Origin: an uncultured Verrucomicrobiae bacterium
GTDB taxonomy: Bacteria; Chlamydiota; Chlamydiia; Chlamydiales; Rhabdochlamydiaceae
NCBI GenBank assembly: GCA_963731265.1
Contig: CAVSUE010000001.1
Span: 512,001-576,000 of the forward strand
Direction: 5' to 3'
DNA: 64,000 nt
The translations under genes were made by a program, and so were the position numbers. The notes under the pieces were generated by a model. It saw nothing but the letters and a program-made list of their open reading frames with translations, did no database searches and was not told where the DNA came from. Of the stretch, positions 2,995-5,502 are shown in pieces (positions within the stretch are counted from its first letter, which is position 1; each line of letters starts with the position of its first letter).

Positions 2995-5502
2995 TTAGAA
3001 AAAAGTGGAAAGGGGATCGACGTCGATAAAAAGGCGCACTCTATTTGTCCACGCGGGCAAAAGGGCTGGCAAACGTCCTAATTTTTCGGCTTTGATGAGA
3101 AATTGGTAACGGAGTTCCCCTTTTATTTTCGCATGTCCACAGGGAACGATCGGAAAGATCTCGAAATGGGAAGGGAGTCGGCTGATGAGGTCGGTGCGCA
3201 GAGCTTCAGCTGCATCCTGTACCTCGTCCCCATTTTTTCCGGAGAACGTGAACTTCACAAGGCGTGTAAAGGGTGGGTATTTGAACAGTTCCCGGACGGC
3301 GATCTCATACTCAAAGAATTTTCCGTAGTCTTGATCTTTGGCCATTTCAATCACCGGATGATGGGGAAGATGCGTTTGAATGATCACCTCGCCGTTTAAG
3401 GCTCCACGGCCTGATCTGCCGGCGACCTGAGTGAGCAGCTGGAACACATTTTCAGAGGCGCGGAAATCGGGGATCTGCAAACTGCCGTCCGCATTTAAAA
3501 CTCCCACCAAAGTCACTTGAGGGAAGTGGAGCCCTTTCGCGATCATTTGCGTCCCAATCAGGATGTCGGCTTTGCCGGCGCGGAATTGTTTGAACAGCAC
3601 ATCATGGCTTCCTTTATGGCGAGTCGTGTCCGCATCGAGCCGAAGGGTCCTGATGTTGGGCAATAAAGCGTGCAGGGCGCGTTCGACCATCTCTGTCCCC
3701 GCGCCCTTGAACTTAAGATCGCCTTCGGCTTTGCAACTCGGGCATGTGCGGGGGGGAGGCGATAGGCGAAAGTCGCAAAGATGGCAGGCGAGTACATTCT
3801 CCCCAAGGTGAAAAGTGAGATTGGCATCGCAATGGGGGCATTGCAGAATATGGGAGCACTTTTTGCACATTTGCGCGGTGTGATAGCCGCGCCGATTCAG
3901 GAAGAGCATGACCTGTTCGCCGATTTCTACCCGCTTTTTGATAGAGGTCAATAAGCGGTCGGAAAAGAGGGTAAATCCTTTTGCTTTGGCAAATTCGTCT
4001 TTCATATCGACGATCGACACCTCCGGCATGAGGGCGTGATCGGCGCGCTTTTTTAGGGTGCTTAGCTGGTATTTCCCTTTTTTGACATTGGAATAGCTCT
4101 CGATGCTCGGGGTAGCGCTCCCGAGAACGACGGAGGCGTTTGCTATCTTGCCCCGCATGACGGCGACATCGCGTGCATGATAGGCGGGCTGCTCTTCCGA
4201 TTGTTTGTAGGAGCCTTCATGTTCTTCGTCGACGATGATCAGTCCGAGGTTCTGTATCGGGCTGAATACGGAGGAGCGAGCGCCGATCGCGATCATCGCG
4301 TTGCCATCGCGCATCTGATGCCAGGCATCAAACCGTTCCCCCTGGGAGAGGCGGTAATGCAAAATGGCGATTTTTTCCTGAAAACGGGTTCTTAATTTTT
4401 CGATCATCTGCGACGTCAGCGCAATTTCAGGGACGAGGAACAGAACTCCCTTTTTGAGCTGCAGTGCCTGCTGCATCGCCTGGAGGTAGATTTCCGTTTT
4501 ACCGCTGCCTGTCACACCGTGGAGAAGCCGCACTTCAAATCGATTTTGCTGCAAGCTTGTGCAAATCTGCTTCAAACCCTCTTGCTGCTCCTCGTTTAAA
4601 GTTTTGGCTTTCGTCGGAAAATATTCTTCATCGGCCAAAAGAGAACGGTCGACTTGAATTTTTTGACTCAGCAAAATCTTCTTTTTGATCAGACTTTCAA
4701 TCGGACTTCGGGAAGTTGTTTCCAACAGTTTAGAAAGGAATATTCCCTTTGGTGACTGAAGGACGGCATCGAGAACAGATGCTTGAGGAGGATGGGACTT
4801 CCTCAGCGCATCGCAAAGGGAGGCAAGCTGGTTCATCGACACTGCGGGCTTGATCAAAAGCTGCAGTTTGGCTTTTGCTTTGCCTCGCACGCTGGAGGGA
4901 AGAATTGTTTTCAGCACTTTTCGGAGAGGCGTGCAGTAGTATTCCGACATCCATGCGGCCAAACGAAATAATTCAGGGGTCACATGGGTTTTATCGGAAA
5001 GGACTACGGCGATTTCTTGCAATTTGCCAAACGTGCTGCTGGACTTGATCGCGATGACGGTTCCTTGTCTTGCCGACCGGCGAACGGGGATCTGTACGCG
5101 TGATCCGACCTCTACTTTTCCTTTAAGCTCCTCAGAAATCCAGTAATCGAGTGGGCGGTCGAGGGCGTCGTCTAAAACAACTTCGGCTATACCGCGCTCC
5201 GTCAGGTTTTGTGAATTTGGACTGGCTGCGGCTTTGCCAAATCGATCAGCCCGGTTCACTTCGTTCACCTGCTTTGCACTGCGAAAGTCCACCGGACTTT
5301 CGCGTGTCTCCGCAGCCTCTTCAGCCGTTCCAGTCTCTTCGGAGTTTGAACTCTGAGGAGACCTGCAACCATCCTTTAATGGTTGCAGCCCTATTCGGGA
5401 ATGTTCTTCCTCGTTCGGCCGCTTCGCTTCGATTTTGCTTTGCCTCGCAGAGTCCAAATTTATAAATCCTTCCTGCGCGCGGTATTTTTTAGCATCTGGC
5501 AT
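2995..5502 (-). CDS. priA: Primosomal protein N' (replication restart helicase) with a ~98-aa N-terminal insertion
   Basis: GVTGSGKTEIY Walker A, DEEH, four CxxC zinc motifs, GTQMIAKG, QVAGRSGR; start is ATG 5502 or 5514. Confidence 0.96.
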   Translation of the reverse strand: MPDAKKYRAQEGFINLDSARQSKIEAKRPNEEEHSRIGLQPLKDGCRSPQSSNSEETGTAEEAAETRESPVDFRSAKQVNEVNRADRFGKAAASPNSQNLTERGIAEVVLDDALDRPLDYWISEELKGKVEVGSRVQIPVRRSARQGTVIAIKSSSTFGKLQEIAVVLSDKTHVTPELFRLAAWMSEYYCTPLRKVLKTILPSSVRGKAKAKLQLLIKPAVSMNQLASLCDALRKSHPPQASVLDAVLQSPKGIFLSKLLETTSRSPIESLIKKKILLSQKIQVDRSLLADEEYFPTKAKTLNEEQQEGLKQICTSLQQNRFEVRLLHGVTGSGKTEIYLQAMQQALQLKKGVLFLVPEIALTSQMIEKLRTRFQEKIAILHYRLSQGERFDAWHQMRDGNAMIAIGARSSVFSPIQNLGLIIVDEEHEGSYKQSEEQPAYHARDVAVMRGKIANASVVLGSATPSIESYSNVKKGKYQLSTLKKRADHALMPEVSIVDMKDEFAKAKGFTLFSDRLLTSIKKRVEIGEQVMLFLNRRGYHTAQMCKKCSHILQCPHCDANLTFHLGENVLACHLCDFRLSPPPRTCPSCKAEGDLKFKGAGTEMVERALHALLPNIRTLRLDADTTRHKGSHDVLFKQFRAGKADILIGTQMIAKGLHFPQVTLVGVLNADGSLQIPDFRASENVFQLLTQVAGRSGRGALNGEVIIQTHLPHHPVIEMAKDQDYGKFFEYEIAVRELFKYPPFTRLVKFTFSGKNGDEVQDAAEALRTDLISRLPSHFEIFPIVPCGHAKIKGELRYQFLIKAEKLGRLPALLPAWTNRVRLFIDVDPLSTFF
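5189..5485. mobile_element. 297-bp palindromic element inserted in frame in priA
   Basis: Long imperfect terminal inverted repeats ATACCGCGC...AATTTGGACT / AGTCCAAATT...GCGCGGTAT; homologous copy at 6711-6990. Confidence 0.88.

Follow-up and report, generated by a model that had tools for sequence, protein, structure and literature searches.

Palindromic repeats that enter genes without closing their reading frames are best known from Rickettsia. According to the available part of one review, the Rickettsia palindromic elements (RPEs) are about 150 bp long and form ten families with 44 insertions in R. conorii, and nearly half of them are able to make translational fusions, which were judged compatible with the protein folds (Ogata et al. 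2000, 2002, per PMC10969869). Here a comparable element is described in the gene priA, within a window of 64,000 nucleotides (positions 512,001 to 576,000 of contig CAVSUE010000001.1, assembly GCA_963731265.1) from an uncultured bacterium placed in the Rhabdochlamydiaceae. With a probability of about 70%, it represents the recent insertion of a non-autonomous MITE (a miniature transposable element with inverted repeats) of an RPE-like family, with priA read through from its old start codon. As far as the accessible text of the review describes them, RPEs share with this family the character of short, hairpin-forming, dispersed repeats with a conserved peptide, lying in frame in unrelated housekeeping genes of an obligate intracellular bacterium and apparently tolerated as additions to the fold (PMC10969869).

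MITEs are also known from Coxiella burnetii, where QMITE1 and QMITE2 (150-400 bp) overlap open reading frames (ORFs), in some cases in frame, and may provide stops or residues of the C-terminus; the same source, in its available sections, gives terminal inverted repeats with a TA dinucleotide at the termini as the rule for most bacterial MITEs (PMC5896051). The element resembles the QMITEs, as far as those sections portray them, in being a MITE of an intracellular bacterium that overlaps ORFs in frame and supplies a stop (PMC5896051). It also resembles TA-flanked bacterial MITEs in general, having a TA duplication, terminal inverted repeats, a small size, no transposase ORF and many copies. 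Protein-coding palindromic repeats outside Rickettsia reportedly occur in Wolbachia, to go by the title of a 2005 paper by Ogata, Suhre and Claverie; that host is likewise intracellular, but alphaproteobacterial, unlike the genome under study (G000 in the following, with contigs C1 and C2; comparison genomes are numbered from G001 onward).

The insertion in priA and its empty sites

In the window, priA occupies positions 2995-5514 of the minus strand as an 839-amino-acid ORF, whose product begins MENAMPDAKK, continues with 98 residues (Y...TERG) and then reads IAEVVLDDALDRPLDY. The 98 residues are encoded by a MITE-like palindromic element of the long form at 5189-5485 (minus strand; core 5190-5484, TAC...GTA, 295 nt), of which positions 5484-5191 contribute 98 codons in frame. 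Its terminal inverted repeat arms are 57 nt long, the arm on the priA-body side (5189-5245) being 72% complementary to the arm on the priA-start side (5429-5485), and the whole of 5189-5485 folds as a single long hairpin with branches (z -7.97 at -124.9 kcal/mol as RNA; z -7.56 as DNA), with none of 200 shuffles folding as well in either calculation. An earlier interpretation of the same DNA, referred to below as the sequence-only reading, had proposed an open-frame palindromic insertion of about 98 residues with long inverted repeats, and these data bear it out. Its figure of 297 bp needs correction as to the net gain: 98 codons amount to 294 nt, and the 297 nt counted between ATAC and GTAT include one flanking-TA base on each side.

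The element stands after codon 6 of priA, the ancestral start of which is the ATG at 5502 (MPDAKK) or the ATG at 5514. The gene stays open because the insert adds a length divisible by three and because strand and phase present the element's one stop-free, strongly hydrophilic frame. Directly behind the element lies the PriA 3' DNA-binding domain (PF17764), complete from profile position 1 to 96 of 96 at residues 111-206, and the ORF further contains the DEAD, Helicase_C, Zn_ribbon_PriA and PriA_C domains. The insert peptide has a grand average of hydropathy (GRAVY) of -1.27 and consists to 80% of disorder-promoting residues, a composition in keeping with disorder; in a PriA structure model, residues 7-105 score below 50 in the predicted local distance difference test (pLDDT) and show no secondary structure, and the first strand is formed by residues 109-114. 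Only one priA locus is present in G000, the other five of the six matches to the query being element copies.

Alignment of PriA with its relatives, a check that the sequence-only reading had suggested, revealed the empty site: all 18 orthologues from other genomes of the genus are without the element, with matches beginning at query residues 88-108, behind the segment, and N-termini that read M(S/P)DA(x)K-(I/V)AEV... or are a few residues longer. At the DNA level, the site reads GCT CAA AAA GTA GCT in G003, whose protein is 92% identical, and GCT GAA AAA ATA GCT in G002, as compared with GCT AAA AAA [TAC...GGT] ATA GCC in G000. Metagenome contigs about 95% alike (runs X2 and X3 of study P2; run X4 of study P3) join 5189 to 5485, skipping 295 nt with ends TA..TA and one C between, which corresponds to an empty allele GCT AAA AAA GTA GCC. 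In run X1, which is 99-100% alike and may represent the source sample, a 151-nt record spans the right junction with 0 differences and has 35 and 100 nt on its two sides, and the left junction is covered by another record with a flank of 27 nt only. The element in priA is real and well supported.

The same insertion altered the neighbouring gene, as the sequence-only reading had also maintained. The upstream gene (5460-6134, minus strand; 224 amino acids, no Pfam family) terminates within the element, whose start-side arm holds its last 8 codons and its TAA stop (5460-5462). In all ten orthologues examined the gene stops at the insertion point, ending ...(M/I/T/L)L(K/R)K before the stop (LCQMLKK or a near variant), and this stop overlaps priA codons 6-8. 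In G000 the last codon and stop were replaced by the insertion, and the new end, ...LCQMLKNTARRKDL (NTARRKDL) followed by the stop, lies within the element. No Rfam family matched anywhere in 5000-7100 at E <= 1, and no promoter-like site fell within 5189-5485 in a scan of 4900-7200 that returned four sites against 2.1 expected.

A TA-flanked repeat family in unrelated genes

A profile search uncovered 15 full or near-full copies in G000, followed by a tail of fragments. The copies belong to two subfamilies, with ends ATACCGCG and ATACTGCG, and to size forms that differ by internal blocks (171, 219-240, 263-297 and 357 nt; 168-357 nt overall), the size classes being ~168/171, 225/231 and 297 nt when counted with the TA duplication. 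The long terminal inverted repeats begin TAC(C/T)GCG, and the ends are conserved over the 15 copies of G000 and 19 copies of G001, the latter defined solely by paired DNA ends; the repeat-end pattern matched 50 times in G001 and not once when reversed as a control. The flanks are just as regular, with t before ATAC in 11/12 copies of G000 and 17/19 of G001, and a after GTAT in 7/11 and 19/19, respectively. At lpxK, the target site is AAATTACGCCCGG in G003 and AAAT-TA-[169-nt core]-TA-GGCCCGG in G000, and at pyrB two G003 alignments share a TAG overlap at the join. From these flanks and empty sites it follows that the element inserts at TA and duplicates it. Terminal inverted repeats, a small size without a transposase gene, TA duplication and dispersed copies that are polymorphic for presence and absence characterise the element as MITE-like.

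Elements of the IS630/Tc1-mariner type target TA, and IS630-type (DDE_3) genes occur in 11 of the 19 genomes of the genus. Unlike an IS630-derived MITE, the element has ends unrelated to those of the resident elements examined: 12 DDE_3 loci shared no ends with it, blastn against them gave a single 15-nt match, and the IS630-like element of G000 itself has 37-nt inverted repeats of unrelated sequence. That element (G000:C1:718456-719900, DDE_3) is inserted into a copy of the present family at C1:718456-718735 and truncates it. A transposase of the same type gave 15 equal-score matches in G001, of which 11 lie in a 360-amino-acid open frame.

Of the 15 copies in G000, six lie within real genes whose open frames run through them, all with the same orientation and phase, and give these hosts a shared insert peptide, Y(R/P)A(Q/E)EGFVNLDSARQSK...DRFGKAAASPNSQNLTERG(I). 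Besides priA, the element lies after codon 2 of a folC-like Mur-ligase gene (net 297 nt), in the lysine-rich N-terminus of the RNase R gene (net 225 nt), six codons before the stop of pyrB (net 231 nt), near the C-terminus of nusB (net 267 nt) and inside lpxK (net 171 nt), where it interrupts the Pfam domain at position 297 of a 328-position profile. The LpxK model places the 35 residues behind the insert confidently in the fold (pLDDT 71-93), and the insert itself (residues 315-376) scores below 50. The five host genes other than priA have an empty site in all five relatives examined (G003, G002, G001, G005 and G017). An insertion in folC shared with G002, which a match reaching the element residues had suggested, was discarded when the G002 site proved to be empty. 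The genome-wide count that the sequence-only reading had proposed thus came to six of 15 copies in frame in genes, and its description of an RPE-like, protein-extending family was borne out here and by the same behaviour in other genomes.

Several copies touch start codons. In the folC-like gene (element at G000:C1:848226-848522) the right duplicated TA reads TG, which creates a new in-frame ATG directly behind the element, possibly serving as a bypass start. In pyrH, encoding UMP kinase, a 231-nt copy outside the window (G000:C1:50959-51189) sits in codon 8 in a different phase, so that the old frame meets a TGA within the element; the conserved KRVLLKLSGE starts at the element end, and no start is plausible except a TTG within the element, 6 nt behind a GGAGGA. 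The pyrH site is empty in G003, G002 and G017, where the gene has a GTG or ATG start. Moreover, of eight G000 copies examined, five are followed at 0-3 nt by the ATG of an ORF (131-601 amino acids), as compared with 3.9% of 20000 random TA sites; these are the copy next to 6708-6711 of the window and those at C1:1557161, 1470195, 349892 and 455557, and the ORFs are ABC-F ATPase, 2H-SAK, TPR and CxxCxxCC proteins and ORF 6127-6708. Both tips of the element, read outward, have a motif resembling GGAG or GGGG at 6-9 nt from the end. Adjacency to start codons was rejected as a general pattern, as only one of the 19 G001 copies has an ATG-initiated ORF within 3 nt.

Insertion in frame recurs in the comparison genomes. 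Six of the 19 G001 copies lie in the same frame inside ORFs of 224-772 amino acids, the hosts being an outer-membrane efflux protein (OEP, just after the signal peptide), an FtsX-type permease (internal), a TPS-domain exoprotein, DUF455 (internal), TsaE and one unnamed protein. Hosts in G002, G003, G008, G012 and G013 comprise an ABC ATPase, a radical-SAM methylthiotransferase, a formyltransferase, a PP-loop ATPase and a chorismate-binding enzyme (internal). The peptide profile matches 12 of the 19 genomes of the genus and, at E <= 1e-3, 103 of 1.84 billion cluster representatives, 25 of which are at least 200 amino acids long and 12 of which carry a Pfam family at E <= 1e-5. With the long form as DNA query, the family was found in 15 of the genus's 18 other genomes and in none of 12 other families represented by one genome each. 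The short form recovered relatives of 72-79% identity in five other families as well as in one further genus of the same family, with at least 8 of 200 genomes scored positive, G000 included, at up to four scored candidates per genome. Three of four loci examined in other genera or families are in frame, in ORFs of 568 (G031), 424 (G174) and 696 amino acids (G092). The G174 copy keeps the inner arms and differs in its outer ends.

G000 consists of two contigs of 2.00 and 0.34 Mb with 46% G+C and probably represents an uncultured, intracellular, chlamydia-like lineage. Four genes for TLC-type nucleotide transporters are present, as against none in 14 control genomes, which makes the assignment of the sequence-only reading to a chlamydial genome a reasonable one. 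The Chlam_PMP repeats, sought as a chlamydial marker, were not found in the genome. The second contig (C2, 339 kb) holds one of the four TLC-type genes and several element fragments.

A second copy within the window (6711-6990, 280 nt) belongs to the ATACTGCG-ended subfamily and is absent from G003. Its arms are 35 nt long and 91% complementary, and its mean column identity to the priA copy is 83%. The sequence-only reading had called it a homologous, free copy with a similar peptide; the homology stands, but the peptide is similar only in pieces (the coding frame contains two stops, and the length is not divisible by three), no gene reads through the copy, and it lies close to a gene, 2 nt upstream of the ATG of ORF 6127-6708. 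A solo terminal fragment, the first ~22 nt of the inverted repeat, lies at 958-979 on the plus strand, ~130 nt upstream of a 568-amino-acid ORF (1109-2815) with a weak ChaN/Tiki-like match below the Pfam cut-off. At 7815-11144 the window encodes an 1109-amino-acid protein whose passenger region is rich in glycine and whose only Pfam match is an autotransporter beta-domain.

Probable translation through the element and competing explanations

The choice of frame argues for translation of the element, as is thought for RPEs. All ten clean-ended genic copies (four in G000, six in G001) are read in the most hydrophilic of their one to four stop-free frames, with a GRAVY of -0.7 to -1.3 as compared with -0.34 to +0.52 for the other open frames (P = 6.5e-4 under uniform choice among open frames), a preference that would be senseless unless the peptide were made. 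Without read-through, the internal copies in lpxK and in the genes for the FtsX-type permease, the chorismate-binding enzyme and DUF455 would deprive their hosts of conserved C-terminal parts. A single genic copy stands in the wrong phase, that of pyrH, and it has a stop in the old frame. If the duplication is included, 11 of 14 copies of G000 and 12 of 19 of G001 have a length divisible by three, an unclean test in that copies inherit the length of their source.

At priA, a hairpin-forming, non-autonomous miniature transposon entered the TA of codon 7, and the same TA overlapped the stop codon of the upstream gene, so that both genes were altered. PriA would then most likely be translated from its old start through the element, yielding a product with an insert of 98 disordered residues, which follow residue 6 and precede the first strand of the 3' DNA-binding domain, and presumably retaining its function. 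Since the old ATG (5502, or 5514) and the sequence upstream of it are intact in G000 and in the same frame, read-through from there is taken as the default. The family enters many unrelated housekeeping genes likewise, in the genus and in other families of the order, and its copies would persist only where frame, phase and position (ends and loops) are tolerated.

Several observations weigh against this account. The right TA duplication is missing at priA, where the net gain is 294 and not 297 nt, so that an extra 3-nt loss or a substitution must have occurred, or the ancestor must have differed. An autonomous parent with the same ends was not found in the genomes searched: paired repeat ends in G000 are never separated by more than 357 nt, and the pattern matches in G001, G002, G005, G012 and G013 include no evident end pair at the spacing of an insertion sequence. 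The insertion is young, being absent at 92-95% identity, and an intact downstream ORF says little on retained function. Between the priA copy and that of folC there are 15 differences in 297 nt, 4 of them synonymous and 11 not, and nothing in the sequences suggests constraint on, or usefulness of, the peptide itself. A hairpin of about -125 kcal/mol would begin 18 nt past the start codon and leave the mRNA strongly structured, and in-frame GTGs lie within the element. The low model confidence is weak evidence, as the alignment consists of nothing but gaps over the insert.

These GTGs, at 5268 and 5259, are the basis of an alternative, akin to the start downstream of the element that the sequence-only reading had considered, in which functional PriA starts anew in the 3' part of the element and the rest of it forms a structured 5' leader, so that PriA would carry an extension of only 23-26 residues. 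The GTG at 5257-5259 (minus strand), which is 5 nt behind an AGGTGA, is a possible start that would leave a 23-residue leader, and copies of the family do stand at starts elsewhere: the folC-like gene has its ATG directly behind the element, the pyrH product can only be made from the GGAGGA and TTG inside it, and five of the eight G000 copies examined end no more than 3 nt before the ATG of a gene. Yet ribosomes setting out from the intact ancestral start would read through in the same frame, the predicted hairpin has the GTG in paired regions, and both the hydrophilic-frame bias and the internal insertions (lpxK, FtsX-type, chorismate-binding) point to read-through elsewhere in the family, which leaves an internal start unlikely, if the most credible of the competitors. 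The products of read-through and of an internal start would be alike except in how long their disordered leader is.

It is far less probable that the recent insertion disabled priA, as a young pseudogene or through hairpin-reduced expression, and that the frame is open by chance. An insertion younger than ~5% nucleotide divergence would not yet show decay, and the priA copy is open in only one of its six frames; but priA is the sole locus of its kind in the genome, all PriA domains are intact, and the six genic copies of G000 and the six of G001 all keep their hosts open in the same frame, which would be unexpected without selection. Least credible is an insert that exists only in the assembly, as a repeat-induced chimera, or that is removed from transcript or protein in the manner of an intron or intein. 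The element is repeated, with one other copy 95% identical; against an artefact stand flanks that are unique and colinear with orthologues, the X1 record that crosses the right junction without a difference, and the left-junction record with its short flank. The removal of the hairpin at the RNA level that the sequence-only reading had entertained is without support, given the lack of an Rfam match, and neither Pfam nor NCBIfam, inteins included, holds a family for the peptide (E <= 0.001 for the priA peptide, E <= 10 for six peptides).

Read-through from the old priA start thus remains the preferred reading. A wider proposal, which is tentative and rather doubtful, is that the family has been shaped at the level of the element to fit coding and expression, and acts as a mobile linker and ribosome-binding cassette that remodels the ends of essential proteins across an order of environmental chlamydiae. 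It is put forward because the size classes, counted with the TA duplication, are divisible by three, the one stop-free frame encodes a flexible, hydrophilic peptide, and the tips carry the outward GGAG- or GGGG-like motifs, by virtue of which a copy could sit right before a start codon or supply a new start, as at pyrH and folC.

Relation to described repeats and significance

NCBIfam holds RPE domain models. No sequence relation to the RPEs was detectable, as judged from Pfam and NCBIfam models and from an exact 28-mer of the element, which was found only in records of this lineage. As far as the accessible text of the review goes, the family also differs from the RPEs in belonging to another phylum, in its modular sizes of ~170/230/297 nt as compared with ~150 nt, and in that TA target duplication and long terminal inverted repeats can be demonstrated (PMC10969869). 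The QMITEs, as presented in the available sections of their source, have direct repeats of 2-3 or 7-11 nt and variable sequence instead of TA, and their in-frame cases in the middle of ORFs are in hypothetical proteins, whereas the hosts here are core genes (priA, lpxK, pyrB, nusB, RNase R) with a strict frame bias (PMC5896051). The word 'chlamydia' does not occur in the available part of the review on RPEs (PMC10969869), and a full-text search of the literature found no report of in-frame palindromic elements in chlamydiae among the titles, abstract openings and passages checked, in agreement with the sequence-only reading, which had not recognised the family as described. On this comparison, the family would be separate from the RPEs and would parallel their behaviour across an order by convergence.

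In-frame, protein-coding palindromic repeats have so far been seen as an oddity that Rickettsia shares with a few other proteobacteria living inside cells. The TA-targeting family of environmental chlamydiae affects core genes of replication restart, lipid A and pyrimidine synthesis, transcription and RNA decay, which suggests convergent evolution driven by the gene-dense genomes of intracellular bacteria. For annotation it means that, in such genomes, gene callers will place starts wrongly and predict unusual extensions. The filled and empty natural alleles offer a view of how proteins tolerate disordered inserts of 57-99 residues, and of whether new termini and new starts arise from them.

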